64,000 nt of DNA from an uncultured bacterium (lineage in GTDB: Bacteria > Margulisbacteria > Marinamargulisbacteria > SXXA01): assembly GCA_903864835.1 (NCBI GenBank), contig CAIPHK010000041.1, forward strand, positions 25,693 through 89,692. The letters run 5' to 3'. The translations under genes were made by a program, and so were the position numbers. Under the pieces are notes generated by a model. That model saw only the letters and a list, made by a program, of their open reading frames with translations, was not told the origin of the DNA and did no database searches. This document shows positions 12,001-42,496 of the stretch, piece by piece. Every line of letters starts with the position of its first letter. The stretch's first letter is position 1.

Positions 12001-14561
12001 CTCGCCGCTTTCGCTGAAAGGGATGCAACGGGGGCATAAACTGCCGATGCAACTTGGAGAGCGATCTCCGCCACCGTCTGGATCTTGGCCGCGAGATCTT
12101 TGTACCACCGCGCGTATTTATATCGCCCATCAATGTACCCATTTGCCGCTTCGACAAATGGCCGAGTCGCAAAATCAATTTGGGACAATCCCGCGCTTTG
12201 TCGCTGTATTTCAGTCGACATTGCATTGACGACCACGCTCTTTGTCTGGGTAGTAGAACTGGTATTTTTGGCGCCTTCCTCCAACCCCGATGTCGCAGAA
12301 ATCTGTTCCGCAACTTGCCGTTTAGCGGAATTCTCAGCTTCTGTAATCATATACGTCGACCGTATAAAATTCTGATAATCCACCATATAATCGCGTAAAC
12401 GAAGAATGTAATTCATCCCCATTTCTGCGTATTGGCCTTGATCCCCAGCTCGCCCCAGTAAATTTAAATTATTAGCTGCAACCGACGCTGATTTACTGTT
12501 GGTATCATCCTGCCCAACCCCCAGAGACGCCCCGAAGTCCCCCGATGTTGAATCAAAATGGCTCTCCATAGCTTCTAATTGATCGAGCCCGCGTTGCAAC
12601 GTGTTCTGGATCTTGGTCTTGTTATTGATCGCCGAAAAGCCATCCATATTATCAACGGCATTGGATCCAAAATTTAAAAAACTATCGGTATTGGTCAGAT
12701 TAGATCTCTCCGTCGGATTCAACGCATCATTGTCCCACAGCGAAATACCCTCCCCAAATTTCATGGTATACCGAACATATGCCTGCGCGTTCTCTAAATT
12801 GACCTTCGCCATAGTCGCGTTCAGATCCAGCGACGCAGTGGCCCGAACAAACGAAAACGCCCCTGAAATTTCATCCGCAAGCCCTGACAAAATTCCGGTC
12901 GCCAGATTCTCCCGTCCGTATTCTTCCAGCTCGGCGCTAATTCGGGCCTGTTGGGCCCCATTCGTCCCGGAAATAAATATGAACATTTCGTTAACCACCG
13001 TCTCAATGGACGAACTAATTTTCCCCAAGGAATTGTTCATCGCGTTGACAAAGCGATTTTTGAATTTACCGGTGGACCCCATGGTCTCTAAAAGTTCTGA
13101 TTTTTGATAATCTTCGAACCCGGACACCGCAATCTCAGCCGCCTGGTGTTCGTCATATTCCAACACCATATTGATCACGTTAAACATCATCACCGCTCGG
13201 TTAATTAAATCCCGAGATTGGGTCATAAAGTCATAAAATGCCTGTTCATTCAGCGTCGTCACATACATGTCGGAATGCCAGGAATTTCCAAAATCTGCAA
13301 TTCTCGTCTTGGTCAGTGTATAAAACCCAAAATCCACCGAAGTCCCATCCCATCCGGGATGTTGGGTAATATTTTTTTCGACTCCGGTGACGGAATCGAG
13401 ATAGGTAAAGCCAGTCCCATCGGCATTGGCGAGGGGCACCTCCACCGGGTTCTCCAACAAGGCTTTTAAAGTCGTTAATTTCTCATTGATACTTTCAACG
13501 CCGTGCTCAACATCAAAATATTTGGCATTCGACGCCGTCTCAAAAAACTCATCAATCGCCTTATATTGTTTAAATGTCGTGTCGTTGCCTTCCAGCACCA
13601 ACAGCATATTTAAGGAATCAAAGGCAACGGGTGGCTTATCAGTAGTCGCGTCCAACGACAGAGATTTTCCATTATCCAATACAAATTTGACGGTTGCGTG
13701 GCCTTTGGCGGCCCCCGTTTTGTCCACCAAATATCCTGCGGCCAATGTTACTTTGCTATGGATATCCGCATCAGACACCCCTGATTTAGACAACGCCCCC
13801 ATCAGCAATGACGCAGTCAGAACCGACAAATCCTCGCAATCGCCTCCCCGAGCAGCCATCGTTTCGTTAATAGTGTTCCAGTGATCCGCCGGTTTCCCTT
13901 CCACCGCCACCCCATCTGAAATATATTTAAAATTGGTCTGAACGTAGGTTGTCACGGCCGCCGCGATATCCGATTCAGACATCCCTTTTTTAAGGGTGCC
14001 GGCGCGGGTCATTTCTTCTAAAATCGTTTGAATATTTGAGTCTTTCGGGGAAATAAGCCCCACGCCATTCCGATATTTAACCTCGGTGGGGGTATAGCCA
14101 TTCTCCGCCATGGATTCTTTTCGAAATTCATCTGCGGCTACCGTTAGTGGATCCGGCGTCGGGCTCATCGTGGTTACATGGGCCATCACCGTCTGGACCT
14201 CTGCAGACGAGATCCCTAATCGATTAATCGTCCCTGGAGTCGTCAGTTTTTTAAGCGCTTCGCAGACGAGGGCCTTAGCACCCGGTGTTGGCACCACACC
14301 TCGGGTTGCAAATTCGGTCACCGCGGCAGTTTGTGCTGTTGTTAAGCCCGATTCGGCCGTCCCGGCCCAATTCACAATTACTTTACGAAGCCACGAATCA
14401 GAAATTCCCGGGGTCGTCAGACCAGCGGAATCGCCTTTCGTCGGCGCTCCGGTTGTTGGCTCTACAAACGGCGAATACCCGGCATTGACGCCGGGTGTTG
14501 TTGCGGGAGAAACCCCGCCCTTTAGAACTCGAAATTGATCATCGAGATTGGGTGCCCACAC
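1..14561 (-). CDS. Giant protein, 5' partial in window (about 4,850 codons; 3' end lies beyond position 1); N-terminal transglutaminase-like Cys/His domain, central Lys/Glu/Ala-rich coiled-coil-like region, internal repeats
   Basis: Reverse-complement reading frame is open from GTG at 14561-14559 (in-frame TAA just upstream, AGGAAG 7 nt before the GTG) to position 1. All seven minus-strand ORFs the track lists inside this span share one other frame (end coordinate mod 3 = 1) and are 112 aa or shorter; plus-strand ORFs are short Arg/Pro-rich shadows. Hand translation gives protein-like sequence throughout. Absent from the ORF track because no stop lies inside the window. Confidence 0.8.
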   Translation of the reverse strand, partial: MWAPNLDDQFRVLKGGVSPATTPGVNAGYSPFVEPTTGAPTKGDSAGLTTPGISDSWLRKVIVNWAGTAESGLTTAQTAAVTEFATRGVVPTPGAKALVCEALKKLTTPGTINRLGISSAEVQTVMAHVTTMSPTPDPLTVAADEFRKESMAENGYTPTEVKYRNGVGLISPKDSNIQTILEEMTRAGTLKKGMSESDIAAAVTTYVQTNFKYISDGVAVEGKPADHWNTINETMAARGGDCEDLSVLTASLLMGALSKSGVSDADIHSKVTLAAGYLVDKTGAAKGHATVKFVLDNGKSLSLDATTDKPPVAFDSLNMLLVLEGNDTTFKQYKAIDEFFETASNAKYFDVEHGVESINEKLTTLKALLENPVEVPLANADGTGFTYLDSVTGVEKNITQHPGWDGTSVDFGFYTLTKTRIADFGNSWHSDMYVTTLNEQAFYDFMTQSRDLINRAVMMFNVINMVLEYDEHQAAEIAVSGFEDYQKSELLETMGSTGKFKNRFVNAMNNSLGKISSSIETVVNEMFIFISGTNGAQQARISAELEEYGRENLATGILSGLADEISGAFSFVRATASLDLNATMAKVNLENAQAYVRYTMKFGEGISLWDNDALNPTERSNLTNTDSFLNFGSNAVDNMDGFSAINNKTKIQNTLQRGLDQLEAMESHFDSTSGDFGASLGVGQDDTNSKSASVAANNLNLLGRAGDQGQYAEMGMNYILRLRDYMVDYQNFIRSTYMITEAENSAKRQVAEQISATSGLEEGAKNTSSTTQTKSVVVNAMSTEIQRQSAGLSQIDFATRPFVEAANGYIDGRYKYARWYKDLAAKIQTVAEIALQVASAVYAPVASLSAKAASLIVFAPPPLFVPIDPVGWVLFGEINGDYWSNAVPDAASAGMSAIAQGIYYDLELNKIKERNTNLMVQEGDFYGNSANAEQLLKDANLAKLNQDSVNPYDESTADYYIGKMDSLLYDSRTQYDSAKGASSLDAGGGFTYSLQDGKNGETNMSTTDFIATRGDGRAVLKGDAMASHQLATSTNYMRVSIYLSILKVLQDAMEGVTATMFGRGKTSTVSNFDGQVDAIIGKESSIIDTFRYETQTRVATINSQWAKEQKEYNQTVEMGRATAKAVVQTARALGEFFYSIVPVPLGEAVLFTTYVAVEEGLKFGFAAEEAAMLANRTWGKFGFTNIDYDSTDPYKNSAVNKDFVSRLENADPDKFDQEKTSNAKIFENLNMDPNLFPSPVASGTVARIASQYGKYAKMDEEEAQILNSIKDPNTILTDSSSLAGIGGNFQQVDFEKVLDAYKQMTQINQVRTFMTMIDQAMYNAKQNALRSMFGGNAGGGHGALSVMASGIDRYVGSIMGSMVGQTGIFQDFISEAESRMGAINDRTLGEINTSIEGSLIAANLIFAGVAGARTYTKAVKLAKSGGLSDASYLKMARKMVSGTMIAGLAANFARIAVGVAMMKSVVANHPQITSELLNYEEDPEEAPVNPNDSEAEQKKNAKLRGTPADSSVNFDAKNPADGGTKTGAAPNLGLDGSGSKESQGIKQKVNTGDQVRMEKLVSRKSRSIQVLRDISMAMSDAKGDAAEDMGGGPSAKNVYRGMNSILSQQTNLEQQAVGIIFKALGAEVESYNRGVDMMVKGVTGVMTTAVQEGAKAMANKAGDLQQKAKQQTATKTGGSTEEAGVDDNVEGSQDTEKPAEKPASTDKKASGDISQNAKKSSSEQLNAQARNWEIAADVLELMGPTLALIMVEALSQALAPDSLMGAQSPMFSTDEADFGLQEGDYLSDGGNIQQQGGEKSGAPAKGGKTEGSLGFLDTGQLETAMFANSLLQFGYQVRQQQLLDLGQIYDQAGAATANKLKGMAKKAIQDHVQKNAKVEEDKAADNLVKEHGEEALTKMVMDAMTQTAAPAPQPGGQGLRLGERASVGRNMFDVLSGKGGPSGQSNAERRLIQKLIMGVADSVAKEHIEVANLNKQKNDKTDTKNYDPNWVNKTAGGSVTAKAVVDDLRAGVMTRAKAQDVRNGSTRSEGQMGAAEAGLVGIIQGRDALEKMDGFEKSIKGRELDAPEALAAFKDAKKDLQVLLDTSTGSKSGIMRAAATLGADDTVVALALKNMAVGSSALPELKPVTAGVRGALSLGRGVFSLGGAAIRGIGGAASAIAAPGAMGRAYGAITAPGAMRNAGMSAIGGIRNGLGSVAGGLWRGSGAVVGGMGSAASYVGGAIKNQAGASTAIMKDGKYTAYFMGLDAGARTQLLEAEFTKAGGGTLSPGLKALASNMAESADRKGFQAKADALLAKVQGASAKIQDSIARGNAATTVSPTGSKVTVVDLDAQTKGGAAAAAATEVHMEAGPRVLAGLFAQTHGAAGAGVGDAPIVQMVQGANDKMTAQLVDRVDPSTHTEVLVTNPDNPAQQIRVAVPGGASASAVAEAQGKRLGEVRWDLAQLRREAEVHTNLTAASGVLKTKEGELRALEAALPAGGSGGRGSGAQEKSLGTALAMEANAANKTLQGMTQQLAKDKLQLRLAQRKSEKLEAIAAQEDEKAKQLRAEVTAGRPSVDFVALMRRNADGADLKAGQHLAEAAEHGADALKHGSAVKTHQQAVTDLNVRFGGLSEAEVAQKKELNQLKSDSETRLNAAKIELKRAERSLQAAKTPADTFRRQLDEKRAEEAKLRIEASVLRTKGKPDVNGAIKKERAAVVAEQHVIRLRGVLINLDVSSYEERKTREREVAKATAVLAYLKQKAELEVSAVKKILDDTNKELKTTNLELSKQLTKLSKFQGRERDSLAKAVESQGLADDAGTRATQMRADALDLEANGVARAGLRLQMVEKAESDAAQHRTNANDQRAVVSDFEAKVARQTNEISTKTEGIADVAARSQAHLDKSKELLQEYKNSPEARAIAEKKAEIRSQQIVVNTLTADSKKTSSTELSLKSRIEELSAEEVHLSKQVVASQMEKESRTLAVATGTASTFLMGHASQVAQLVAADRELRGMSVTVGKDASGNRTLTTKAGSDSSLSSVAVALSEELASPAVRLAALRAELAVVRADGDAAWDSGHATSAELSYVRLELVKKEEQAGKDAKFTIAANGHRAAGNEEALRLEGVAKLEMNASKDAQRRIDKQETLVQEIKELKEKEQRLHIATEAFFDKSTEKDLRSAELGAKIGQLEVSMASDSAAAAAATGTAMKFLTGSASQVAQMLPVRREAEDLIVTVGKDASGNRTLTTKAGSDSSLSSVAVALSRGSAVIDVQAAHDEMDGASGFLKDRALEKEVVAHAESHLQGVANTTAGTFVVATVDKDGKTILRALDPKKDGDLSKFVGVTMARPGGAPGDSRTVLMERGVHVDLASDEVQAHFGVDVKDPVAARFSLSPESQVLMDRRTAALAPTQNLERAKVLTMDATGNPVLRARLEGESLSNFEAHTVKEKDHTGADIPGSERTILIEKGSSLNFADAKVQAALGPNGAGNKFETTGDALFLQDSKSKLNLQRDIAVALSSLEQTLIGMSSYNMSLAVSARLAGTTLDQSGLSRADLKSAQAVLDANGLGDSRSVVPTDLRGVQTAGRGFLSLVTLNLADTDSRGNIRVGSGPISAVASAVGSAVRGVGRATGNLGGRGAQFKNKGDSDVGTHALDERALGKFKGDAAAQATLMTQLNDKFKGDSAKAQRVMDVLTGKATQDLMDRLKVSVSKGDLMTAQKERGEKLLAIAKAHGNETAAASVLALLVKVEDTGLAVRQSALEAYSFSLKENALQRSDLTNVAFRFLAHDGREIGKQRDDAYAAEGRGFDRRRAAIGFLDFKDSALGTTRFEARGKDLAIVFADAQDAVRKLDGTLKEGFRDGGVFRLDSESVLGEGNRYTTTQEMEKGRDLNLHMMNHVETVFRAELTNLIVSRDEKRASEMIKGALGAGKSGRELVSRVMQDLAVQDKAYGSARFKRMMEVTIARYSGNDEVMSGLGEAVSTAVEKANPRAEVGRTAGLTMAAGVGTRIKRSISDVVFGGGSEVTADDADVGTRIKHSISDVLFGGGPGVSAKQVGDTFADSLGSGGSDVRRAAMGRGWRGQVADFVFQRSAVTDGEGFVDSSNVQAVEARMAGAVASQLSSIEGFGKLALHMEETDMDRMTSALDPRAMTQLMQSVAAGGTGAGGMDRAQVSLDKAVAAFEAARDRVDAPTLSGRYLPSRLKGAEQLFAVNALAEAEKKLDAQLINFAKFAVTAGAEIVGREVGTGGAEGNGRSRDWGATVIEDAVARIKEIKTQTGTLGTGQATQVGEQLVQIAAKVREFSVSEKPMTAESREAFIRGMATAMGGATDDVSAGADLNTLLDHIDNQAAERQIHASNDLPSQFLSDMVSGISRAGRPATLATTSGESMLALHNLALSADRTAAGAAVPDEIRARLKRGDTHGVADMVIEIKEMIQRGIEKPLRVETMQDRMILRKEQYEAYSKDTKMHLNSDFSSLSRKFNTDPVAANVELTKRANAVARQVVELSSSGDFGSITQLLGNIKRTGGEAGAMVIQMVGFEVRRLGKQQEFEQYLRQADVRSEQFIKTVSLDKKAQQEARAIFADALSGKSAPDELHQMSDDHLTEMRGTLDRDEALVSMANELGGSPAKLAAVMTDPEGAGLLAKLLAEGSAMYLPGAKRLLETMLKLESGDDTVMHSLEKLGYKVGAEGLRIDEGSSDPTLNTPDEFKRVIEQVIAAQSDPNVKAAMSSKEEGFVTAIKVGYQGDRPLAPMSRKDRETTAKIMLTGGPAAVDKARSDFQDFARVDPNGAAILIKDLDTVAPNYANTLLTGLTKNLAPSDSQGLMGLSKALGAASAASGADELSMDTLATVDSTKTMVDSFIAQERMGQIADFDTGR
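2493..2621. repeat. Imperfect tandem duplication (two ~51-nt copies, 78-nt period) inside the giant gene, encoding repeated GTRIK(R/H)SISDV(V/L)FGGG
   Basis: tcctccgccaaa..atcggaaatcgag(t/c)gtttgatccgagtccctac occurs at 2493-2543 and 2571-2621. Confidence 0.7.
4843..4934. repeat. Copy 1 of a perfect 92-nt direct repeat inside the giant gene
   Basis: gagagggcgactgcaaccgatgagagactactgtccgaccccgccttggtcgtcagagttcggttgccggaggcatccttacccacagtaac is identical at 4843-4934 and 5491-5582; encodes VTVGKDASGNRTLTTKAGSDSSLSSVAVALS twice. Confidence 0.85.
5491..5582. repeat. Copy 2 of the perfect 92-nt direct repeat inside the giant gene
   Basis: Identical to 4843-4934; flanks are related but diverged, so the identical core sits within a diverged ~650-nt repeat unit. 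Confidence 0.85.
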
Positions 14562-14585
14562 GATGCCACTTCCTTTCAGAAATTT

Positions 14586-14707: not shown

Positions 14708-16240
14708 TCACCGGCGCGCAATACACTCCAATATCAAACTCCGGACCAAATCCGGCTTGGCACGTCCCTTGGTCTCTTTCATCACTTGGCCCATCAAAAA
14801 ATCAGCTGAATTTGTTTTACCATTTTTTACTTTTTCCACTACATCCGGATTCGCATCTAAAATCCGATCCACGACGACCACCAACTCACCGGTATCCGAA
14901 ATCTGGGTGGCCCCGGATGCCGACACAATCGCGTCCGGAGATTGGCCCGTTTGGACACATTTCTCAAGCACTTCTTTGGCCATTTTTCCTGACAATTTCC
15001 CCGACTGAATCAACCCCAATAACTGAACCAAACCGTCCGGCGTGACCTTGGATTCCTTAAACGACTGCTTCGTCTCTTTTAACAACGAATTCAGATCACC
15101 GACCACCCATTTCGCCGCATCTTTAGGTACCGCGCCGGCACCAATACACTGGTCTAAATACTGGCTCGTCTCCGGCTCGTTCAACACGACATCAATTTCA
15201 AAATCCGACAGCCCCGCGTCACGATATCGGGTCGCCTTGGCTTCCGGAAGTTCGGGCAACGCGGCTCGAATGGTGTCAATCCACTCGCTCGTCACCACCA
15301 AAGGGTACAAATCCGGTTCTGGAAAATATCGGTAATCGTGAGACTCTTCTTTGTCACGCAACACCCGTGTGGTTTGAGTTGCTTCGTCATACTGACGGGT
15401 TTGCTGAACAATCCGCTCACCCGCGGTAAGCAACTGGGTTTGTCTCGCAATTTCCGAATGGATGGCCCGCTCAATACTTCGAAATGAATTCACATTTTTG
15501 GTTTCCGTCCGGGTCCCGAACGGTTCCGTTCCGACGGGCCGGAGCGACACATTGATATCCGCCCGCAAACTGCCTTCATCCATATTTCCGTCACAAATCC
15601 CCAAATAGACCAATCGCTGCCGAAGGCCTTCGACGTATAATCGGGCTTCCTGGGCGGTTCGGATGTCGGGTTCGGACACAATTTCGATCAAGGGGGTACA
15701 CGCCCGGTTTAAATCGACGTGGGAATGGGTCGCCCCCGCAATAGTATCCGAGCCTTGGTGAATCAATTTCCCCGCATCTTCTTCCATATGAATCCGAGTG
15801 ATCCCAATTCGCTTTTTGACGCCATCCACCACAATATCCAAATGCCCGCCCAAACAAATGGGCTGATCGAACTGGCTAATTTGATACCCCTTGGGTAAAT
15901 CCGGATAAAAATAATTTTTTCTGGAGAATACCGAGGTGTTCCGCACGTCACAGTCCAAGGCCAATCCCGCCATAATGGCGTATTCCACCGCGCGACGATT
16001 CAGCACGGGAAGTGCACCTGGCATTCCCAAGCAGACGGGACACACGTTGGTGTTCGGTCGATCGCCAAACTGCGTGGAACACCCACAAAATAACTTCGTG
16101 TTGGTTTTAAGCTGAGCGTGAACTTCTATTCCTATCACTACTTCGTAGTGTATTTGTTTCACCGTTGCTTCGCCCGGATGAAACGCGGTCGAACTGGCCA
16201 AGCCAGATTCTCCCTTAGGCTCAGAGCTGTCTATAGTCAT
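14708..16240 (-). CDS. gatB: Asp-tRNA(Asn)/Glu-tRNA(Gln) amidotransferase subunit B
   Basis: ORF 14708-16387; GatB-like sequence (VIGIEVHAQL, CPVCLGMPGALPVLN). Start placed at internal ATG 16240, which overlaps the gatA stop as ATGA. Confidence 0.9.
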   Translation of the reverse strand: MTIDSSEPKGESGLASSTAFHPGEATVKQIHYEVVIGIEVHAQLKTNTKLFCGCSTQFGDRPNTNVCPVCLGMPGALPVLNRRAVEYAIMAGLALDCDVRNTSVFSRKNYFYPDLPKGYQISQFDQPICLGGHLDIVVDGVKKRIGITRIHMEEDAGKLIHQGSDTIAGATHSHVDLNRACTPLIEIVSEPDIRTAQEARLYVEGLRQRLVYLGICDGNMDEGSLRADINVSLRPVGTEPFGTRTETKNVNSFRSIERAIHSEIARQTQLLTAGERIVQQTRQYDEATQTTRVLRDKEESHDYRYFPEPDLYPLVVTSEWIDTIRAALPELPEAKATRYRDAGLSDFEIDVVLNEPETSQYLDQCIGAGAVPKDAAKWVVGDLNSLLKETKQSFKESKVTPDGLVQLLGLIQSGKLSGKMAKEVLEKCVQTGQSPDAIVSASGATQISDTGELVVVVDRILDANPDVVEKVKNGKTNSADFLMGQVMKETKGRAKPDLVRSLILECIARR

Positions 16241-17712
16241 TGTGTGCTCCTCATCAATGGGGACTGGAAACGAGTGGGAAATTGAGACAATTCTTGGAAT
16301 CCGGCGGCCACATTCAGAATCTGTTGATCCCCAAACGCGGGCCCGATGATTTGAAGCCCGACCGGCAACCCTTGATCCAGCCCACAAGGAACCGAAATCG
16401 CGGGAAGCCCCGCCATATTTACCGGAATGGTCGCAATATCGGCCAAATACATCGCCAACGGATTGGCCTCATGTTCCCCCAACTTAAACGCAACCGACGG
16501 TGTTGTAGGGGTCATAATGACATCATATTTTTGAAATGCGTGGGCAAAATCTCGGACAATCAACGAGCGCAATTTTTGGGCCTTGGTATAATACGCGTCG
16601 TAATATCCAGAGCTTAAAACGTAGGTTCCAATAATAATCCGCCGCTTTACCTCCGGTCCAAATCCGCCGCCACGCGACTGACGAAACATATCTCGCAAAT
16701 TATCCGCCCCGCCGTCACGGTAGCCATATCGAACCCCATCAAATCGGGACAGATTCGCCGAGGCTTCCGCCGGCGCAATAATGTAATACGTCGTGACCGC
16801 TTCCTTGAGAGACGGCATCGCGATTTCTTCCCACGTCGCCCCATTGGCTTTTAAAAGATCCAACGCGGCAACGACTTGCGCCTTCACTCCGGGGTCAATT
16901 TCGGACCCAAACAATTCTTTGGGAACCCCGATCTTGAGACCGGCAACCGTCGGTTTCAGACTTGAATAATACGACTCCGAGAGACGCGGCGATGACGTCG
17001 CATCATGGGCATCAAATCCTGAAATGGCCTCCAAGACCAACGCAGCGTCTTCGACCGTTCTCGAAAAGGGTCCGATTTGATCCAGAGAGGAGGCAAACGC
17101 CACCAATCCGTATCGAGACACCCGGCCATACGTCGGTTTCATCCCCACAACCCCACAAAAAGCAGCCGGTTGGCGGATCGATCCCCCCGTATCCGACCCC
17201 AAAGAGACCACCGCCTGCCCTGCCGCCACGGCAGCGGCGGATCCGCCCGACGATCCCCCGGGAACACGAGAGGTATCCCAAGGATTCAACGACGTGTGAA
17301 ACGACGAGTTTTCGGTGGAGGAGCCCATCGCAAATTCATCCAAATTGGTTTTGCCGGTTACGATCACCTGCTGCGCCTGGAGACGATCCGTTACCGTTGC
17401 ATTAAACGGAGGGATAAATCCTTTAAGAATCTGCGATGCACAGGTCGTTGGTACCCCTTGAACATGGATATTATCTTTGATCGCGATAGGAATTCCTGCC
17501 AATAGTGGCAATGTTTCTCCCCGATCAAACTGGGCATCCAACACCTGCGCTTGCGCCATGGTTTCCGATTGAAAGGTGGTCAAATACGACTTAACCGAGG
17601 GTTCCACTTGATCGTGATGTAACCACAATGAGGTGACAACATCGGCTACTTTTACAGATCGATTCCGAAACGCTTTTCCTAACTCTACTGCCGAACTGCG
17701 CCATGTGGTCAT
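16237..17712 (-). CDS. gatA: Glu-tRNA(Gln) amidotransferase subunit A (amidase family)
   Basis: ORF 16237-17751; amidase signature GGSSGGSAAAVAAG..GSDTGGSIRQPAAFCGVVGMKPTYGRVSRYG. Start placed at ATG 17712, which overlaps the gatC stop as TAATG. Confidence 0.9.
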   Translation of the reverse strand: MTTWRSSAVELGKAFRNRSVKVADVVTSLWLHHDQVEPSVKSYLTTFQSETMAQAQVLDAQFDRGETLPLLAGIPIAIKDNIHVQGVPTTCASQILKGFIPPFNATVTDRLQAQQVIVTGKTNLDEFAMGSSTENSSFHTSLNPWDTSRVPGGSSGGSAAAVAAGQAVVSLGSDTGGSIRQPAAFCGVVGMKPTYGRVSRYGLVAFASSLDQIGPFSRTVEDAALVLEAISGFDAHDATSSPRLSESYYSSLKPTVAGLKIGVPKELFGSEIDPGVKAQVVAALDLLKANGATWEEIAMPSLKEAVTTYYIIAPAEASANLSRFDGVRYGYRDGGADNLRDMFRQSRGGGFGPEVKRRIIIGTYVLSSGYYDAYYTKAQKLRSLIVRDFAHAFQKYDVIMTPTTPSVAFKLGEHEANPLAMYLADIATIPVNMAGLPAISVPCGLDQGLPVGLQIIGPAFGDQQILNVAAGFQELSQFPTRFQSPLMRSTQ

Positions 17713-17999
17713 TATAAAATCCTCGGAACGACGAAGGAGTGGTCGGCCCAAGCCGGCGCATTCGTCGCCAAGAGAAGGTCCGGCTGGGGTACCACAACGT
17801 CATCTCGCAACACCATGTCCACCGAAAAAGCGGTGGCGGCGGGCGCAACGTGGGTCAAATCAAACTGATTAATACTTTCCATATGTGTCAAAATCGACTG
17901 AATTTGGGGAAGGAATTTTTCCTTCAACGCCGTACTCACGTCCAGGTGGGCCAATTGAATGATGTGATCGAGGTCAGATTTGGAAAATGTCATGGTCAA
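17712..17999 (-). CDS. gatC: Glu-tRNA(Gln) amidotransferase subunit C
   Basis: 95-aa ORF immediately upstream of gatA with coupled stop/start; size and position typical of GatC. Confidence 0.75.
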   Translation of the reverse strand: MTMTFSKSDLDHIIQLAHLDVSTALKEKFLPQIQSILTHMESINQFDLTHVAPAATAFSVDMVLRDDVVVPQPDLLLATNAPAWADHSFVVPRIL

Positions 18000-18015: not shown

Positions 18016-19134
18016 TTAACTCACCGAACACCCGCATCCCTGTGGCTGAGTCAACGAATTTAACATGGCTTTTTTCCCTGCTTTTAGCGACGGATTCGAC
18101 CACAACTGTGTAATCGCGGGACGCAGCATAGTGCAGGATTCTTGCCATATCGGATTCCCCACCAATTTCATACCCGCATCCTTAAAAACGAAGACAAGAT
18201 CCGACTCCAACGGTTTTAATTGTGCGGCGTCGGAATCAAGGAAATAATTCTTCACCATATCCAAAATGTCGGCCGCATGGCCCACGCAACTCAATCGCTT
18301 ATTTTCCGATAAAACAGCCTGATTCTGCTTGTAAAACGTGGTCATATTCTTCAATGTCGTTACCACCAGGTTGGCGGCCTGCCCGTCCTCCATCCGAATC
18401 GACATTTCGACAAAAAGGGACCCTGCGGTCAATGCCGACTCTGTCCACCGTTTTGTCTGACCCATGCAACACACGACCTCCTGGGTCCGACTCCGCCAAT
18501 CCGGAAGACGCGAATCCGCAAACGGCTCGCCATACACAAGGTCTTGCCGAATCCCAAGATCCACCAATTTAAGCCGATAATGCGCCGAATACGGCGTCAA
18601 CATCACAAATCGGGAATCAACGGATGGGAGCTCAGCCAAAGAAATCGCCTGTTGGTAAAAATGCCGCGCAAAATCGTAAGACTGAGCAGCAATGGTTCGA
18701 TCCGACCTCATCGCCAAATCACCATACTCCGAATAATTTAAACCCAGTTCAAAATATACGTCGGTCTGTAGCTCTGAAGATGCCGACCCCCACATCGGGC
18801 CATTCACGACGGGCAACAAACACTCAATCGCAGCCGTGGGGTTACCTTGACCCCGAGACGTCCTCGCGCTCTCTAGCGATTCTGCCGGGGAAATCGACCT
18901 AAATACCGGGGGCGGTACCACCGTCGCATAGAGCGGCGGGTTTACTTCTATTGGAGTAATATACGACGCCTTACCGACAAGGTCCCCCGAGGTGGTATCT
19001 TGTATCGCAATGGCGGTCGGGACCGGGTACATCCATTCCATTGGAGGTGCAGACGGCTCCGGGCTTCCTGACCACGTGCACGCAACACTCCTCTTCATAA
19101 GGCAATTAATTCCCATAATGAACCCTCCCAACAA
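18016..19134 (-). CDS. Hypothetical protein (372 aa)
   Basis: Long ORF between the 1,835-aa gene and gatC, same strand; no motif recognised. Confidence 0.5.
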   Translation of the reverse strand: MLGGFIMGINCLMKRSVACTWSGSPEPSAPPMEWMYPVPTAIAIQDTTSGDLVGKASYITPIEVNPPLYATVVPPPVFRSISPAESLESARTSRGQGNPTAAIECLLPVVNGPMWGSASSELQTDVYFELGLNYSEYGDLAMRSDRTIAAQSYDFARHFYQQAISLAELPSVDSRFVMLTPYSAHYRLKLVDLGIRQDLVYGEPFADSRLPDWRSRTQEVVCCMGQTKRWTESALTAGSLFVEMSIRMEDGQAANLVVTTLKNMTTFYKQNQAVLSENKRLSCVGHAADILDMVKNYFLDSDAAQLKPLESDLVFVFKDAGMKLVGNPIWQESCTMLRPAITQLWSNPSLKAGKKAMLNSLTQPQGCGCSVS

Positions 19135-19192
19135 AAGTTAAATGAGCTCGAAGTGTAATGGCTATTGGGAGAGGAATCTAGGAGTGCTTGAT

Positions 19193-22100
19193 CTAGAAAT
19201 TAATCGTCGCCTTAAACACCACCCCTGAAATCTCATAGCCAATTTGTTGAACCCCCGCCGCTGCACGGTCTTTATCATACGCATCCGTCACCCGCTTGAT
19301 CTGACCTTCACCCGTGATCGTTACATTTTCCAGATAGGGGTTACCCTTAAATGGCAGAATGATATTCAAGGTCAAGGACCCCATTTCAACGGTATCTTTA
19401 CGATCCACTACCGAATACCGAATTTGATCCCCCGTTCCTTTTTGGGTCTCCGTTTGCTGCAGCGTATTCAACGATTTCCCCCAGTTATCATCTCGGGTAT
19501 ACGTCATCGACACCTTAAAAATATCGGTCTGGATCGGCGAATAGCTCACCGACATTCGTCCAGAATATCCTCTACTTGAATTGCCCCCCTGGGTGTCTGT
19601 CAACCGAATCGAATAGTCATAACCGGTCGACAACCCGGGAAGTGGCCTAAATTCCGCCCCCACCGATCCCACCTTTTCGGTATACACCGCGCCCGATGTA
19701 TTTACAGTCGTGGTGAACTGATCGTTCAATCTAGATAATGACGCTGATCCCCGAAAACTGATAAATGAAAAGGGCGTCAACGTGGCCCCCAACGACCCCG
19801 CATATTTTCTCTGAAATATATGATCGGTAAATAATGTCCCGTTGGTCCGAACCTCAGCGGACTGCAGCTCCTCAATATTTAAGTTTAAACTGGGGGATCG
19901 ATATTGGTTTGACTGGGTGAATGACGCATTTCCATTCAATGCCAAAAATGAAAATGGCGAATACCCTACCGCCACGTTCAAACTTTCTGAAATGCGGTGA
20001 GTCAGACCCGTATTAGCCTGCGACAAGTTTCGACTTAAGGTATCCCGGGTCATCCGTCCCGCCCCTGAAATACTGATCAAATTCAACGGGTTTAACGCCA
20101 CATCCAGGCCCAGAGAATATTGATCCGTATTGTCTTGGGACACACTGCGTGTCACGACGTCACCAAACACTTGATCCACTTGTTGAAAACTGACTGCACG
20201 ATAGATGCTTTCATCTACCCCCGCCCGAAAAGTCCCCAAATTCAGCATAAAAATTGTCGGTATTCCAATCATAATCGCGCCAGGATCAAACGATAGATTT
20301 TGAACTCGGCGATCAAAGGGACTCTCCATCAATGTTTTATTGCTCGTTGCCGAATCCGCAGTTATATCGAATCGTTGGGATTCCCTCTTATAATCCAAAC
20401 TAAGCCCGTAAGAAAATTTATCCAATAAAAAAATGGGCGGGCGAATATCCAATTTGCCTGACAATGACCGATAGGTCCGAGAGCTCGAATTTTGGGAGGC
20501 AGTCTGGGTTTGGGCATCATCCACGGAATTGTTGAGGTCCATCGTGTACCCGATTCGACTCAGAGACACCCCTGGCACTGGCGAAAACGCGTTATACGCC
20601 ACCGTTTGGCTATTGTTGTTGATCCGCTTTAAATCGTCGTTTTCTCGCGACTCTGTTTTCCCATAGCTGTAGGTCAAAAACGACCCCCTCAATACGCCGA
20701 CCAGCAGATTGTCGTCGCTCAACCCTAAATAAGTTAATAACCCCGGCGGTGAAAATGTACTCACTTGATATCGGACATCGTTCGACAGTTGCCCCTTTTG
20801 ACCCGACAGCGGGCTAAACCGTTCAGAATTGGACAACGACCCACCGATATTCAACCACCCATAGGGCCGATACGACGTATCCACCCGGTAATTCGTCACT
20901 CGATTCGGGGTGCCGGATACGTCGTTGGAAATCGAATTTTGTTCCTCTGTCGAAAAATCCATCCCGCCATCCATCATTGGAAGCGGTTGAAATCTCGATC
21001 CTACTCCGATCTTACGGGAAAACGAGCGGTTAATGGTTTGAAGATTCGTCGCCGACGTCAGCGCCCGGACGGTGGTCTGGGCATATTCAAAATTGGGGCG
21101 GACACTCGTATCCCCCAGCACCAACAACCGATTCAACTTCAACTCGGTCGACAATTGATAGGAATCGGTTTCTGTATTTCGACGATCAAATCCGTCCAAC
21201 ACCCCAGACACCGATTTTGAAAAACTACGATTAAACAAGTATCGAGCCCCCCCCGCCGAAAACCCAATACCCGTATCCCAGGACATGCTGGCGGCGTCAT
21301 CCACATAGATATTCCCCGTTGCGCCGTCTACCGACGGGTCGGAATAACTCATGTTGTATCGAAACGTTTGGCTAAAATCGATCGCATTAAACCAAAGCAT
21401 TTTGGCGCGAATCCCTAAGTCATCGGTGTGTTTATACAAATTGTCTTTGACGCCTGCGGGCGGTAAATATTGCTCAAATCGACGGTATTCCGCCGAAATC
21501 CATTGATTCTCCGCCCGCCGGTAGTCGATCCCCCCACCGAATGACACCGTCCCCCGTGGCGCTTGAATCGGCGAAATTGGAGAAAAATCTTTGTCCACCG
21601 CCTTGATATCCCCCCGAATCGTCCATGGCCCGTCCTGAAACTGCGTCGCCACTTTTGACGCAAAACGATACCCCTTCGACGCACCGGCCCGGGTCTGTCC
21701 ATTGGGATCAATATATTTAAACTGAACCCGAATTTTATCTGTTGCTACCGGATTTAAATTGATAAATCGAAACGTCCCATTCACATAGTTAATGGAGTAG
21801 TTTTGGTCTCGAGTTTGCGGTCTGTCATTCAAAAAAACCAGTTCTGAATTCTCGATAATATTGCGAAATCCCAAACTGTAGGTTGCCGCGCCGCCCTGGC
21901 CCGCCCCAACAAATTCGGTCTGTAATTGCTCCCGAGTCAGGTTGTTTTCAGCCCCAGATAATTCGGTATCCACTCGCCACGATTTGGACAACTGAGCCCC
22001 TAAGGTCAATCCAAATTGACGCTGCGAGATCGTACCGGCATCGGGCACAGATTCGGGGGCATGATCATACGTGATCATGATTCTTTGGCCGGACGCCGGA

Positions 22101-24700
22101 TAACTATCCAAATACCGCTGGGCGGTCCAGTTGGGGTCAATATCTCCCTTTTTGAAAAACTTGATACTCACAAGATCGTCGCCATCAGCCCCATAATTAA
22201 CGATATAGTCTCGGCTCACAGTTAACGGGACATACTCGCTGGTCACGCTATCAAAAAGTCGCACAGTCTTCATTCCATTAAATCGAATAGGCACATCGGT
22301 GGGATTAAACGCAGGCGAATGATTCACATATTCGCTCACCCCCACGCCTGCCCCTTGGAAAATGTAGGTCGTCTGATAACTTTTTCGGAATTGGTACGAT
22401 ACCGCCGCAGGGCTACTCCCCACCGTCGAATTAACCGTAAATAGGCCGGTGTACGAATCGACTGAAAAGGTATTGGGTTCGGTCACATTTCCAGACACGT
22501 AGGTAAACAGCTGCCCATTCACGGTCAAAATAATTTTATCCGGATTCGCAATCGGGTTATTGACCACAGTGAAGGAATTGCCGGAAAACGTGACATTTTC
22601 AGAACTCACCGAGACCAGAAGCTCATCTTCTTGGCCCTTAGCGTATTCATCGAGGTAGGTCACCCCAAAATTGATCGGCGAACCTGAGGTACTGCCTGAG
22701 GTACCAACGGTATCCATCCGAACTACCCGATATTTCACGGTGATAATCGTCGGATATTTAATCGGATAGAAAAATTCCAATTTACCTTCGGCATCGTTCA
22801 ACGTGTAGTCCACCGTTGAGTTCAACACATTTCGGTCGTAAATGACGACTTCCGAATCGTCCAACACGTCGGTATTACTCAATGAATACGGGCCCCTGGA
22901 ATCCTGCCCAATCAAATCGTCAGTGACTTCGAACGTGTCATAGCTGGAGTAATTTACCGTCACCGAATCCCCCACCCCCAATGGCCGCTTAACAAAAACC
23001 AACTTTCCTTTCCGGGCCCGAACCACATAGTCCAAATTGCGCCGCAACGTCACTCCGTTCAAAATCACCTCATCGGATCCCAGCACGATCGCGTTCGACT
23101 TCAGGTCGATATTCATCGTACCGATCCAACTCTGATTCGATGATGCCGTCACATTAAAGGGCTCGGTGGTTCTTACCAACCGTGGCACTTTCTCCAGCAC
23201 TTCGGTGGCTTTCCAGACGTATTGAGCTCCCAAAAAATTCTTTCGTGACAACACCGGAATAAAGTCTTCAATGGGGTTTGTAAATTCATACACAATTTCA
23301 ATGTGATCCGACGGGCCCTTCACCGTATTGAACTTCACGACCCCATCAAAATAGTTGACGACATAGTCTCGCCCTTCAGATTGGGGGGCATTGTTCACCC
23401 ATACTCTGACCGAATCGTTCAGGAGGGATCGAACCCCCACGTTATAGTCGCGCAGTCCATTTCCATCCGACTCAAATTTTTTGGGTTCCGACCGTTGCTT
23501 TCCTGCGGCAAAAATAATATTCCAATTGGGATCCGAATTGGTGTACCGAACCCCGTTTAATGATTTCCGATAGTTAATGAACTCCCCATTTTTAAACTCC
23601 GCATCCAAGTGAAAAAAGGTGAGATCCTGCTTTTGATATTTCACTGCAACATCGTATTTTCCCGGGAAATCCGGCTCTTGTTCGATGTCATAATGAACCG
23701 ACAAATCATCCGCCAACTTCCCGTCGATATTAAACCGAAACCTCATGTCAAATTTGGGACTCCCTAACAATACGTCGCTCGGCAATTTGGTATACACCGG
23801 GTCCCGCTGAATCATTCCCCACCGGTTATCCGTCGCCGACAATTCTCCCAATTTGGGGCTGTAATCTCGTCCGCTAATCTTCATTTCATAAAACCCATCC
23901 ACGTCCAATTGGGGATACCGACTACTGGGCCGTGGGGGGAACCGAAATACCTCATCAATCGAGGGGCGATAGGTATATACCGGGCGGGTCCGAAATAGAT
24001 GCCGACTCACTGTTGGCGAGCCGGGGCCAGCCGATGCCGTCGGTAATTTCATTGAGTCGATCGTCTCTGAACGCGGGATATCCGTGTCCAAAAATTGGCG
24101 GATTTTAGATGATGCAAAGTTAGTCGTCGTCACGGAGGTTTCCGTTGGGACTTGAGGACTCGGCGTCGCCACCAACATATCCAACTTTGGAACGGGAGTG
24201 AGTGTCGGTGTTGCTGTCGGAACCTCGACGGTATTTTCAGTCACTAATACCGGGCCACTGGTCGGAATCTCCGCCGCCACAATTGCATTTTCTGTCGGCA
24301 ATAAGGAATTGGGCGTCACGTCAACTCGGTTGATCTCCGCTATTTCCGCCACGACATCAAGCACCGGTTCAAGAACCGCTGCCGGAACCACCATTCCCAA
24401 CAATGTAATCGGCGGCGGAATAACACCCTCGTACGGTACGGTTGCCGACCTAAGTACCCACACCCGAAAATCGTCATAGGTTATGACCTGAAAAAAAGTT
24501 TCGTTCCCAGTTACCACTTCAAATATCGTGCCAGAAAATGCCGAATATTTAATCGCCGCAGTTTCGTCCGGTGCCACTCGAAATACAGCGGATTGACTCC
24601 CAATTTGGACATACGTGGTCGCCGCGATGCTAACGGCGAAAACGCCAACCAGAAGAACAGTCATCAGGGCAACGATGGTTCGGACTATTGGGGAACCCAT
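19193..24700 (-). CDS. Large beta-rich envelope protein (1,835 aa) with N-terminal hydrophobic signal/anchor; outer-membrane barrel-like or TamB/SprA-class, function unknown
   Basis: N-terminus IVRTIVALMTVLLVGVFAVSIAA is hydrophobic; long Ser/Thr/Asn/Tyr/Gly-rich body with alternating patterns; C-terminal residue Phe (..KATINF). Start may be at 24664 instead. Confidence 0.6.
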   Translation of the reverse strand: MGSPIVRTIVALMTVLLVGVFAVSIAATTYVQIGSQSAVFRVAPDETAAIKYSAFSGTIFEVVTGNETFFQVITYDDFRVWVLRSATVPYEGVIPPPITLLGMVVPAAVLEPVLDVVAEIAEINRVDVTPNSLLPTENAIVAAEIPTSGPVLVTENTVEVPTATPTLTPVPKLDMLVATPSPQVPTETSVTTTNFASSKIRQFLDTDIPRSETIDSMKLPTASAGPGSPTVSRHLFRTRPVYTYRPSIDEVFRFPPRPSSRYPQLDVDGFYEMKISGRDYSPKLGELSATDNRWGMIQRDPVYTKLPSDVLLGSPKFDMRFRFNIDGKLADDLSVHYDIEQEPDFPGKYDVAVKYQKQDLTFFHLDAEFKNGEFINYRKSLNGVRYTNSDPNWNIIFAAGKQRSEPKKFESDGNGLRDYNVGVRSLLNDSVRVWVNNAPQSEGRDYVVNYFDGVVKFNTVKGPSDHIEIVYEFTNPIEDFIPVLSRKNFLGAQYVWKATEVLEKVPRLVRTTEPFNVTASSNQSWIGTMNIDLKSNAIVLGSDEVILNGVTLRRNLDYVVRARKGKLVFVKRPLGVGDSVTVNYSSYDTFEVTDDLIGQDSRGPYSLSNTDVLDDSEVVIYDRNVLNSTVDYTLNDAEGKLEFFYPIKYPTIITVKYRVVRMDTVGTSGSTSGSPINFGVTYLDEYAKGQEDELLVSVSSENVTFSGNSFTVVNNPIANPDKIILTVNGQLFTYVSGNVTEPNTFSVDSYTGLFTVNSTVGSSPAAVSYQFRKSYQTTYIFQGAGVGVSEYVNHSPAFNPTDVPIRFNGMKTVRLFDSVTSEYVPLTVSRDYIVNYGADGDDLVSIKFFKKGDIDPNWTAQRYLDSYPASGQRIMITYDHAPESVPDAGTISQRQFGLTLGAQLSKSWRVDTELSGAENNLTREQLQTEFVGAGQGGAATYSLGFRNIIENSELVFLNDRPQTRDQNYSINYVNGTFRFINLNPVATDKIRVQFKYIDPNGQTRAGASKGYRFASKVATQFQDGPWTIRGDIKAVDKDFSPISPIQAPRGTVSFGGGIDYRRAENQWISAEYRRFEQYLPPAGVKDNLYKHTDDLGIRAKMLWFNAIDFSQTFRYNMSYSDPSVDGATGNIYVDDAASMSWDTGIGFSAGGARYLFNRSFSKSVSGVLDGFDRRNTETDSYQLSTELKLNRLLVLGDTSVRPNFEYAQTTVRALTSATNLQTINRSFSRKIGVGSRFQPLPMMDGGMDFSTEEQNSISNDVSGTPNRVTNYRVDTSYRPYGWLNIGGSLSNSERFSPLSGQKGQLSNDVRYQVSTFSPPGLLTYLGLSDDNLLVGVLRGSFLTYSYGKTESRENDDLKRINNNSQTVAYNAFSPVPGVSLSRIGYTMDLNNSVDDAQTQTASQNSSSRTYRSLSGKLDIRPPIFLLDKFSYGLSLDYKRESQRFDITADSATSNKTLMESPFDRRVQNLSFDPGAIMIGIPTIFMLNLGTFRAGVDESIYRAVSFQQVDQVFGDVVTRSVSQDNTDQYSLGLDVALNPLNLISISGAGRMTRDTLSRNLSQANTGLTHRISESLNVAVGYSPFSFLALNGNASFTQSNQYRSPSLNLNIEELQSAEVRTNGTLFTDHIFQRKYAGSLGATLTPFSFISFRGSASLSRLNDQFTTTVNTSGAVYTEKVGSVGAEFRPLPGLSTGYDYSIRLTDTQGGNSSRGYSGRMSVSYSPIQTDIFKVSMTYTRDDNWGKSLNTLQQTETQKGTGDQIRYSVVDRKDTVEMGSLTLNIILPFKGNPYLENVTITGEGQIKRVTDAYDKDRAAAGVQQIGYEISGVVFKATINF

Positions 24701-25788
24701 AACAGCATTGCGTCTCCGTAACTGTAGAATCGGTACCCCCGGGAAATCGCCTCTGCATAGCCAGACTTGATCCGTTCAATTCCCATTAACGCCGAAACCA
24801 AAACCAAAAGAGACGACCGTGGCAGGTGGAAATTGGTAATCAACCCGTCAATAACATGGACCGTCGACCCGGGTCGCAAAAATAACGCCGTCGACCCCGC
24901 CCCCGCGCGAATCTCGTTAGAGGCCCACGCCGACTCCAAGCACCGCGTCACCGTTGTCCCCACCGCAATGACCCGACGGCCCTCTTTTTTCGCCCGCGTC
25001 ACACAGGCCGCCGTGTCCTCTGATATGAAGTACGACTCCTCATGCATCCGGTGATCGTCCAAATTAGTGACCGAAATCGGCTTAAACGTTCCATATCCAA
25101 CGTGAAGCGTAATGGTGCAAAGTGTCACCCCCATCGCGCGGAGCCGGTCGAGCAATTCGTCTGTAAAATGCAACCCCGCTGTGGGCGCAGCCACTGCGCC
25201 CGGCATCCGCGCAACCACAGTTTGATAGCGTTCCAAATCACTGGCATGGGCCACCCCATTTCGAATATATGGAGGAAGGGGCACCTGACCTACCCTTTCG
25301 AGGGCCTCTGCCCACGGAAGCGACGTCATGACCCGTACCCGATGCAAGGGCGCTGAGTGATCCGATGAGCTCACCATATTTTTTTGAATAATTCGTACCG
25401 ATACCTCGGACGAAATGACCACGTCGTCTCCTTCCGATACCCGTTTTGCGGGTCGAAGCAAGGCCAACCAATCGTCATCCGGCAGCCGCTCAACCAATAA
25501 AATTTCCACCCGCCCGCCACTGGGCCGAGTCCCCATCAAGCGGGCATTAATTACTCGGGTGTCATTCATCACAATCACATCTCCCGCCTGCACGAGGTCG
25601 GGCAAATCATAAAAATGCCGATGGAATTGCCCCTCATTAGACAAGACCATTAAGCGGCTATGATCCCTCGGCACAACAGGGACTTGTGCAATTGCATGGT
25701 CCGGGAGTTCAAATTCAAAATCAGAGAGTTGCAGCCACCGTCTCCTGGATAATCGTGCCCATCGCTGCCACCCACTCGGGGCCATCAT
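24685..25788 (-). CDS. queA: S-adenosylmethionine:tRNA ribosyltransferase-isomerase
   Basis: QueA-like sequence (LSDFEFELPD, LPPYI). The listed start overlaps the hemH 3' end by 68 nt, so the true start may be internal. Confidence 0.85.
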   Translation of the reverse strand: MMAPSGWQRWARLSRRRWLQLSDFEFELPDHAIAQVPVVPRDHSRLMVLSNEGQFHRHFYDLPDLVQAGDVIVMNDTRVINARLMGTRPSGGRVEILLVERLPDDDWLALLRPAKRVSEGDDVVISSEVSVRIIQKNMVSSSDHSAPLHRVRVMTSLPWAEALERVGQVPLPPYIRNGVAHASDLERYQTVVARMPGAVAAPTAGLHFTDELLDRLRAMGVTLCTITLHVGYGTFKPISVTNLDDHRMHEESYFISEDTAACVTRAKKEGRRVIAVGTTVTRCLESAWASNEIRAGAGSTALFLRPGSTVHVIDGLITNFHLPRSSLLVLVSALMGIERIKSGYAEAISRGYRFYSYGDAMLLWVPQ

Positions 25789-26737
25789 TCAAACACGGAA
25801 TCATTTGCAATTCAGTGCCACCTGCCACCAAAAATTGAGCGCGCCCGCGATCTCCGATTTCTTCGATGGTTTCTAAACAATCCGCAACAAATGCCGGACA
25901 CACCACCCCCAACCGCTTTACCCCACGCGCCGCCAATTCGGGAATCACCGCATCCGTAAATGGGGTCAGCCACGGGTCTTTACCCAATCGCGATTGAAAC
26001 GACAAGGACCATTGATCACTCGAAAGACCCAAGGTATCGACCACACGTTGCGTGGTGATTCGTACTTGATGCCGATAACAGGTGTCATGCGCCACCGACT
26101 TCCGGTCACAGCAGCCCTCGGTCATACAATGGCTCCCGGTAGGATCTGTTTTTTTAAGGTGGCGCTCAGGAAGCCCATGATAACTAAATAAGACATGGTC
26201 CACGTCCAATAGAACCGGCCGAATCTGATCCGCCAACGCCGCAATATATAGGGGATGCGAAAAAAATGGTGGAACAACGGATTTCCCCACCCCTGGGGCC
26301 AGTCGGGCCATCACGGATTCAAATTCAACCACGACAGTCGTGACGCTGGACATCGCGTAATGTGGATACATCGGAACCAGAACAATTCGATCGACTCCCA
26401 TCGCCACTAGTTCGGCGACACCCGACTCAATCGATGGACTCCCATACCGCATCGCCAACGCGATCGGACCCGTCATACTGTCCTTTAATGCGGCACAAAA
26501 TCGACGACTAATTGTTACTAAAGGCGATCCCTCTGCCGTCCAAATACTCCGATACGCCTCTGCGGAGGCATGGGGACGCGAGGGCAAAATTCCGAATTCC
26601 ACGACCAAAAAACGAAGCCACACGGGGATATCCAAGACAAATGGATCCATCAAAAATTGGCGTAAATACCGCCGCACATCTTTGACGGCAGGCGAGTCTG
26701 GCGACCCTAAATTGGCGATTAAAATACCGGTTGTCAT
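25721..26737 (-). CDS. hemH: Ferrochelatase
   Basis: Ferrochelatase motifs LFSYHGLPE and VVCPAFVADCLETIEEI; 338 aa. Confidence 0.85.
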   Translation of the reverse strand: MTTGILIANLGSPDSPAVKDVRRYLRQFLMDPFVLDIPVWLRFLVVEFGILPSRPHASAEAYRSIWTAEGSPLVTISRRFCAALKDSMTGPIALAMRYGSPSIESGVAELVAMGVDRIVLVPMYPHYAMSSVTTVVVEFESVMARLAPGVGKSVVPPFFSHPLYIAALADQIRPVLLDVDHVLFSYHGLPERHLKKTDPTGSHCMTEGCCDRKSVAHDTCYRHQVRITTQRVVDTLGLSSDQWSLSFQSRLGKDPWLTPFTDAVIPELAARGVKRLGVVCPAFVADCLETIEEIGDRGRAQFLVAGGTELQMIPCLNDGPEWVAAMGTIIQETVAATL

Positions 26738-30507: not shown

Positions 30508-30582
30508 TTATTACTTTTTCCTTAAAATTATCGCCCTAAAAAATACGGTGCCGACAAAATTCTGGAATAACCAGGTGGATCT

Positions 30583-31872: not shown

Positions 31873-31896
31873 TATTAAGTAAAAAGGGGTAACACC

Positions 31897-32502
31897 ATGG
31901 GCTTAGTTCCAATTGTTGTTGAACAGACCGGTCGTGGAGAACGATCCTATGATATTTATTCACGCCTTCTAAAAGAACGGATTATATTTTTATCCGAAGC
32001 CATCGATGACCATACTGCCAACCTCATTATCGCTCAGCTTCTGTTTTTAGACGCCGAAGATAGCGATAAAGAATGTTACATGTATATCAACAGTCCGGGT
32101 GGTGTAGTCACTGCCGGACTCGCTATTTATGACACCATGCAATATATCAAGACCAAAGTATCGACCATCTGTTTGGGGCAAGCGGCCTCAATGGGCGCGG
32201 TACTATTGGCGGCGGGGGAACCTGGACGTCGTTTTGCACTCCCTAACGCTCGAATCATGATTCACCAACCATTGGGTGGGGCTCAAGGACAAGCGACCGA
32301 CATCGAAATTCAAACACAAGAGATCTTGCGGTTAAAACTGAGCTTGAACACCATTTTGGCGAAACACACCAAACAAACCATCAAGACTATTGAAAAAGAT
32401 ACGGATCGCGACAACTTCAAGAGTGCGGAAGAAGCCGTTAAGTACGGCCTCATTGATTCCGTCATTACATACAACCAAGCCGCAAAAATAACTAAAAAAT
32501 AA
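31897..32502 (+). CDS. clpP: ATP-dependent Clp protease proteolytic subunit
   Basis: ClpP motifs [44 protein letters not shown]. Confidence 0.92.
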
Positions 32503-34995: not shown

Positions 34996-35017
34996 CGGTG
35001 AAAAGGAAATTCAACGA

Positions 35018-36840: not shown

Positions 36841-36851
36841 GACACCCCATC

Positions 36852-42493: not shown

Positions 42494-42496
42494 CAA

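Follow-up and report, generated by a model that had tools for sequence, protein, structure and literature searches.

A giant predicted outer membrane β-barrel protein of Margulisbacteria and Saganbacteria and its possible relationship to the SprA translocon

Introduction

The largest single-chain β-barrel solved so far, with 36 strands, is SprA (Sov), the outer membrane translocon of type 9 secretion systems (T9SS), and sequence-based prediction has yielded a family with 38 or more strands (10.1101/2022.10.09.511469; 10.64898/2026.03.07.710327). T9SS has been described as restricted to Bacteroidetes and the Fibrobacteres–Chlorobi–Bacteroidetes (FCB) group (PMC4793230; PMC7463736). Another kind of large barrel is represented by Deinococcus SlpA and the OmpM type, in which a wall-binding domain in the periplasm and a long connector precede an outer membrane barrel (30 strands in SlpA); barrels of this type are typical of diderms among the Terrabacteria. 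Here we describe a protein of 1,835 amino acids (aa) encoded in a 64,000-nucleotide stretch (the window; contig CAIPHK010000041.1 of assembly GCA_903864835.1, positions 25,693 to 89,692) from an uncultured member of the Marinamargulisbacteria. The window represents all of the DNA of the source genome used in this study, and the relatives were covered with flanks of up to 10 kb. We put the probability that this protein is a Sec-exported outer membrane barrel of exceptional size, of the type inserted by the β-barrel assembly machinery (BAM), at about 0.9, and the probability that it is a SprA-like protein-conducting pore at roughly 0.45, the latter mainly because its shorter orthologues in Saganbacteria, a sister class, lie beside T9SS-type sorting domains.

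Sequence features and predicted structure

The open reading frame (ORF) of 1,835 aa is a real gene, because an independent gene call in a public assembly (P0001) gave an identical protein and searches turned up 64 homologues. The protein begins with MGSPIVRTIVALMTVLLVGVFAVSIAA, which includes the sole strongly hydrophobic stretch of the N-terminus, preceded by Arg7, and terminates with ...ISGVVFKATINF, and there is no Cys in the whole chain. The signal peptide (Table 1), which is of the classical type at the start of nearly all members of the family, is likely cleaved after SIA or IAA. It is followed by a region modelled as a compact β domain (pLDDT, the predicted local distance difference test score, ~95), which agrees in fold or profile with the bacterial SH3 domain (SH3b, PF08239), and by a disordered linker that is weakly conserved and variable in length among the homologues. 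The C-terminal β-signal reads ...KATINF in the window protein, and the pattern h-x-G-h-h-h-K-G-T-h-x-F was found in nearly all full-length homologues listed as well as in 20 of 20 members of a short size class described below. A Sec signal peptide, a β-signal ending in an aromatic residue, and amphipathic antiparallel strands, which characterize BAM-dependent barrels, are thus all present. Searches of the 1,835-aa protein with Pfam, NCBIfam, and PHROGs gave only a weak DUF2460/TIGR02217 match, located on a small inserted domain. A precomputed match to PF27730 is recorded for some members of the family, and this entry was not identifiable in the local Pfam.

Two AlphaFold2 (AF2) half-models were built from alignments of 62 sequences, one for aa 850–1835 (pLDDT 87.6; predicted TM-score, pTM, 0.60) and one for aa 1–900 (pLDDT 78.1, pTM 0.52), and both are almost entirely β. 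DSSP assigned only antiparallel hairpins in both models from ~aa 262–264 to the C-terminus, and 59 strands were counted on combining the two DSSP strings, 36 of which have a hydrophobic face judging from the family-averaged dyad amphipathicity. In the N-terminal half of this meander, long strands alternate with small β-sandwich domains, at least four in number, which were located with a repeat hidden Markov model (HMM) built from copy 1; a further weak copy was detected near aa 827. Copy 1 is the best-conserved part of the family, and the EFTNPIEDF motif begins at its C-terminal end, the full motif YEFTNPIEDFIPVLSRKNF (aa 471–489) extending nine residues beyond it. The family profile also matched 31 separate stretches of P0179, a protein of 6,085 aa, best at the small-domain segment (profile positions 695–732), which suggests that giant proteins, too, contain the small-domain module in repeated form.

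The first-pass annotation of this window had described a β-rich envelope protein with a hydrophobic N-terminal anchor or signal and a C-terminal Phe, and this description is correct apart from details of the gene start, the partner, and the giant gene, which are taken up below. The hydrophobic stretch is borne out as a Sec-type signal peptide by the AF2 helix and the homologues, and the Phe closes a β-signal kept across the family. The suggestion of a very large outer membrane barrel agrees with the signal peptide, the β-signal, the hairpin-meander models, and fold matches to barrels only. Of the classes proposed for it, SprA-like fits (the Foldseek ranking, the TIGR04189 matches of orthologues, and the sorting-domain neighbours in Saganbacteria, all described below), and TamB/AsmA-like or periplasm-spanning does not.

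Table 1. Coordinates of the 1,835-aa protein, its parts, and the neighbouring genes in the window
Feature	Position	Strand	Evidence or remark
hemH	25721-26737	-	
queA	24685-25788	-	Pfam Queuosine_synth 1.9e-122; NF001140 5.8e-129
Gene for the 1,835-aa protein, predicted giant outer membrane β-barrel (putative SprA-like family, Margulisbacteria/Saganbacteria)	19193-24700	-	
Sec-type signal peptide, ~aa 1-27	24620..24700	-	sole N-terminal hydrophobic stretch; AF2 helix 4-21; classical in nearly all homologues
SH3b-like domain, aa 29-89	24434..24616	-	presumed periplasmic
Disordered Pro/Thr/Val-rich linker, aa 109-247 (~140 aa)	23960..24376	-	pLDDT <50; composition
β-hairpin meander/barrel region, aa 262-1835	19196..23917	-	DSSP of both models, ~59 strands
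Small inserted β-domain copy 1, aa 405-480	23261..23488	-	weak DUF2460 and TIGR02217 matches; repeat HMM
Small inserted β-domain copy 2, aa 527-585	22946..23122	-	repeat HMM i-E 1.2e-8
Small inserted β-domain copy 3, aa 597-657	22730..22912	-	repeat HMM i-E 1.2e-10
Small inserted β-domain copy 4, aa 930-999	21704..21913	-	repeat HMM i-E 2.4e-16; short strands, C-terminal model residues 91-130
C-terminal β-signal strand YEISGVVFKATINF	19196..19237	-	pattern h-x-G-h-h-h-K-G-T-h-x-F in homologues
366-aa lineage-restricted ORF, predicted soluble	18016-19116 (372-aa version to 19134)	-	GGAGG and ATG 19116
gatC	17712-17999	-	95-aa gatC-like ORF
gatA	16237-17751	-	
gatB	14708-16387	-	
Giant ORF, at least 4,861 codons, runs past the window start	3-14585	-	

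Family and distribution

When 5.8 billion proteins were searched by word seeding, 65 matches emerged; almost all are 1,600–1,830 aa long (the long class), none is functionally named, and their named sources are Candidatus Margulisbacteria, Margulisiibacteriota, and Marinamargulisbacteria. Among GTDB species representatives, 37 loci were detected, whose taxonomy is the same except for a few metagenome-assembled genomes with other labels, and a profile of aa 255–1400 retrieved 161 proteins at E ≤ 1e-30 from 1.84 billion representatives. The 161 proteins also contain a second, smaller class (1,300–1,500 aa; the short class) from Saganbacteria/WOR-1 and other Margulisiibacteriota, which is without the SH3 region, the linker, and ~200 residues of the C-terminal half. 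In the short class the signal peptide runs straight into a YPQxDISGYKK motif, whose counterpart in the window protein lies at aa 262, and because this class does without the SH3 region and linker, we take aa 262–1835 as the family core. The SH3 region is likewise absent in ~40% of the long class, as in nearly all of the short class. The family does not extend beyond Margulisbacteria and Saganbacteria, where its gene is a phylum-wide core gene with conserved synteny (161 matches; 37 GTDB species loci), which counts in favor of the reading as a giant barrel and SprA-like pore. The name given by NCBI or JGI, where there is one, is "hypothetical protein."

Relationship to SprA

The PDB fold matches of both model halves were outer membrane barrels only. 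The top four in Foldseek were SprA structures (E 1.2e-5 to 2.2e-5, TMq 0.34–0.38, ~1,100 aligned columns), followed by TonB-dependent transporters (TBDTs; TMq ~0.2). Like SprA/Sov (TIGR04189; PDB 6H3I, 6H3J, and 8GL6), the window protein appears to be a giant single-chain, Sec-exported outer membrane β-barrel, with small domains inserted N-terminally and long barrel strands C-terminally. It differs in its length (1,835 aa here and 1,300–1,500 aa in Saganbacteria, compared with the 2,319 positions of the TIGR04189 model), in its ~59 predicted strands as against 36 in SprA, in the added N-terminal SH3b domain and linker, and in its host, since T9SS is considered a property of the FCB group alone (PMC4793230; PMC7463736) and the Margulisbacteria stand outside it.

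Membership in TIGR04189, the SprA/Sov profile, is judged by a match along the model length above the curated cutoff of 200 bits, and the family fails this cutoff by a wide margin. The profile was nevertheless matched by 7 of 15 long-class and 5 of 5 short-class members tested, with E-values from 2e-9 to 2.6e-17 and 35–55 bits, and several WOR-1/Saganbacteria members are named "Cell surface protein SprA" in UniRef, so that a hint of the SprA lead was already present in the automatic names of some short-class proteins. The matched segment, TIGR04189 positions 591–676 (~85 aa), corresponds to the repeated small domain plus the conserved motif after copy 1.

The gene context of the short class points in the same direction. 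In Saganbacteria the barrel orthologue follows a fatty-acid synthesis operon, with a convergent gene downstream, and in all four of the loci examined this convergent neighbour carries a T9SS-type C-terminal sorting domain (CTD; type A). Three of these genes encode S8 peptidases whose C-termini score 23.5, 25.0, and 29.8 bits on TIGR04183 (cutoff 23). The fourth, beside a second barrel paralogue in one of these genomes, encodes a 292-aa protein that scores 22.3 bits on TIGR04183 and matches the C-terminal 200 residues of PorU with 64 bits, and a second protein with the same CTD is encoded 7 kb away. Next to this second Saganbacteria paralogue (L045:15-9118, minus strand), there is a run of six proteins of 390–480 aa, four with a DUF11-type repeat and one with a sorting domain resembling the C-terminus of PorU, followed by an F5/F8 type C protein; this run may be a cargo cluster.

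Several results weigh against a SprA-like pore. The window protein gave no match to TIGR04189 at E ≤ 0.1 as a whole or at E ≤ 1 with aa 255–1400, and when P0285 was divided into ten windows, every TIGR04189 match fell on the one segment 591–676. Because all matches map there, what the family has in common with SprA in sequence is one module, and the two do not align colinearly. Three family alignments compared with PDB as sequence profiles retrieved nothing meaningful, SprA included. The Foldseek TM-scores are below 0.4, the E-values of TBDTs are of the same order as those of SprA, and the models are halves (pTM 0.52–0.60) that do not fix the closure of the barrel, the number of its strands, or whether there are one or two barrels. 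Mean-field covariation for the C-terminal strand pairing (effective number of sequences, Neff, ~100) had low power, with z only ~1 for the hairpin positive controls. As for cargo with a T9SS CTD (TIGR04183 or type B), an HMM from five Saganbacteria CTDs had no match in the window or the flanks of the 37 long-class loci, and NCBIfam showed no such CTD on the selected window ORFs. PorV, PorU, PorK/L/M/N (GldK–N), and SprE/SprT were not seen among the genes scanned in the window and flanks. Our case for a relationship to SprA is therefore made from the ~85-aa module, the architecture, the Foldseek ranking, and the gene context taken together.

There is strong support that Sec exports the chain by way of the cleavable signal peptide, that it bears the Phe-ended C-terminal β-signal typical of BAM substrates, and that the hairpin meander continues unbroken from aa 262. 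On the SprA-like reading, the SH3b-like domain would be held in the periplasm by the flexible tether of ~140 residues, where it probably binds peptidoglycan, and the barrel itself would be a large, gated pore that conducts proteins. It would correspond distantly in function to the SprA/Sov translocon, to which it may be homologous, and Sec-exported cargo with a C-terminal sorting domain would pass through it. On present evidence, neither the 366-aa ORF nor the giant ORF belongs to this system. A wider proposal, which we consider somewhat doubtful, is that Margulisbacteria and Saganbacteria have a type-9-like export route with a divergent SprA-type translocon, a single-chain barrel of 50–60 strands, larger than that of SprA, that may work without PorKLMN and is co-transcribed with queA in most Margulisbacteria. 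Our literature searches on these topics turned up no paper tying SprA or T9SS to either group. If true, the presence of a SprA-related barrel with T9SS-type sorting signals in an uncultivated phylum related to cyanobacteria would make this route older or wider in origin and offer a stripped-down system for asking what a translocon requires. The 1,835-aa protein is also a candidate for the largest single-chain β-barrel, which bears on how BAM assembles such substrates, and the findings offer a first clue to the function of a core envelope gene otherwise labelled hypothetical.

Alternative roles

An alternative that we hold to be unlikely is that the protein serves structurally, as a giant porin that also ties the outer membrane to peptidoglycan, in the manner of Deinococcus SlpA or of OmpM; its SH3b domain would bind the wall, and its barrel would be a large and mostly passive channel or scaffold with no part in protein secretion. 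The order of domains is similar in both, and the SH3b domain as well as the amidase gene that neighbours the barrel gene in several relatives would fit this role. However, the module here is SH3b-like and not SLH, the connector is disordered and not a coiled coil, the predicted barrel is much larger, and no sequence relationship was seen. The SH3 region is dispensable in the many members noted above, which makes it look accessory; OmpM homologues are already present in the phylum (10.1101/2021.05.31.446380); and a tether leaves the CTD-protein neighbours in Saganbacteria unexplained. The tether and pore roles may also be combined in one protein.

It is very improbable that the protein is an LptD-, TamB-, or AsmA-type machine of envelope biogenesis, moving lipopolysaccharide (LPS) or lipids to the outer membrane. 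Pfam and NCBIfam gave no OstA_N, LptD, AsmA, TamB, or DUF490 match in the window protein, the models contain no β-jellyroll or β-taco, the C-terminal β-signal and hairpin meander are unlike TamB, and separate TamB_N- or AsmA-type genes lie on related contigs. A periplasm-spanning TamB/AsmA protein was set aside on its defining features, the models matching barrels only, and so was LptD, which is defined by an N-terminal OstA_N β-jellyroll and a 26-strand barrel domain. TBDTs and LptD, barrels of 22–26 strands, align to only ~350 of the 986 residues of the C-terminal model (aa 850–1835), and the window protein differs from them in lacking a plug domain, a TonB box, and an OstA_N jellyroll and shows no sequence similarity to either.

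The first-pass annotation proposed that the barrel protein and the ORF after it form an export apparatus for the product of the giant gene, and in Bacteroidota giant adhesins are indeed cargo of T9SS. This is the slimmest of the chances considered and is weakly refuted: all of these genes are tightly packed on the same strand and in L001, a relative with 54% identity, gatB is likewise followed by the giant ORF, but the housekeeping genes gatC, gatA, and gatB stand in between, 30 or more other loci have no giant neighbour of the barrel gene within the flanks, the visible part of the giant ORF has no N-terminal signal peptide or Pfam match and one strongly hydrophobic internal segment, its C-terminus is outside the window, and the 366-aa ORF looks cytoplasmic and belongs to one narrow lineage.

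Gene order and neighbouring genes

The genes of the locus are ordered hemH, queA, the 1,835-aa ORF, the 366/372-aa ORF, gatC, gatA, gatB, and the giant ORF on the minus strand. The start of the barrel gene had been placed about 20 nt from the queA stop; it is indeed close, and the ATG at 24700 overlaps the queA stop (24685–24687) by 16 nt instead of following it. Elsewhere in the family this overlap amounts to a few nucleotides. In 25 of the 35 distinct long-class loci with enough upstream sequence, down to 28% protein identity, queA immediately precedes the barrel gene on the same strand, and this adjacency is not kept in Saganbacteria and has no apparent functional reason.

The gene downstream of the barrel varies: at least 10 loci have a peptidoglycan amidase (Amidase_3) there, and other loci have RuvC or an HD protein. 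Amidase_3 proteins of 600–700 aa with Cu_amine_oxidN1 follow the barrel in L010, L013, L016, L017, L018, L020, L023, L026, L027, and L035 and on the contigs of P0026 and P0056, and these loci come from many marine and freshwater Margulisbacteria. Further downstream on the P0026 and P0056 contigs there is a glutamate racemase gene, and the locus on these contigs lies within ~10–15 kb of dnaA-dnaN-recF.

An ORF does follow the barrel gene in the window, as first annotated, and it most likely encodes 366 rather than 372 aa, starting at the ATG at 19116 with GGAGG seven nucleotides upstream, as in P0066. As a partner of the barrel it did not hold up. The 366-aa protein has no signal peptide or membrane segment (maximum KD19 0.89) and contains 9 Cys, looking cytoplasmic from its sequence; it has only three detectable homologues and no family match in Pfam, NCBIfam, or PHROGs. 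It follows the barrel gene only in the closest relative, L005, its place being taken by other genes in other lineages. It ends in a conserved GCGCSVS, and a 305-aa gene at the same position in L001 (L001:15795-16712), which looks unrelated, ends in SCCAVS; the final 88 residues of the two proteins give a weak alignment (hhalign E 0.008, probability 5%), and both end in C-x-V-S. The two genes may be orthologous by position and evolving fast, with a Cys motif at the C-terminus.

The giant ORF, called downstream in the first-pass annotation, does not directly follow the 366-aa ORF and comes after a complete gatCAB, the gatC-like ORF, which that annotation did not mention, lying between the 366-aa ORF and gatA in an order common to L001. 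Margulisbacteria have been reported to be rich in giant genes (10.1101/2023.11.21.568195). Pfam gave no match over the whole visible length of the giant ORF, the hydrophobic segment is at aa 1452–1471 of the frame, and a transglutaminase-like GGDCEDLS motif is found near the N-terminus. A related giant N-terminus follows gatB in L001 as the one close relative, and a metagenome scan for relatives of the giant ORF found none.

Upstream of the locus, ClpX and trigger factor are encoded on the plus strand (30571-33818), and the 201-aa ORF between them is probably ClpP, as in L001. After the ClpX region come sugar-nucleotide and aminotransferase genes in one block (34931-47949), an LPS heptosyltransferase-like gene (46582-47949), and a gene for a DHA2-family efflux transporter of the major facilitator superfamily (47906-49501). 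The block, the transporter, and the heptosyltransferase-like gene fit an LPS-bearing diderm envelope.

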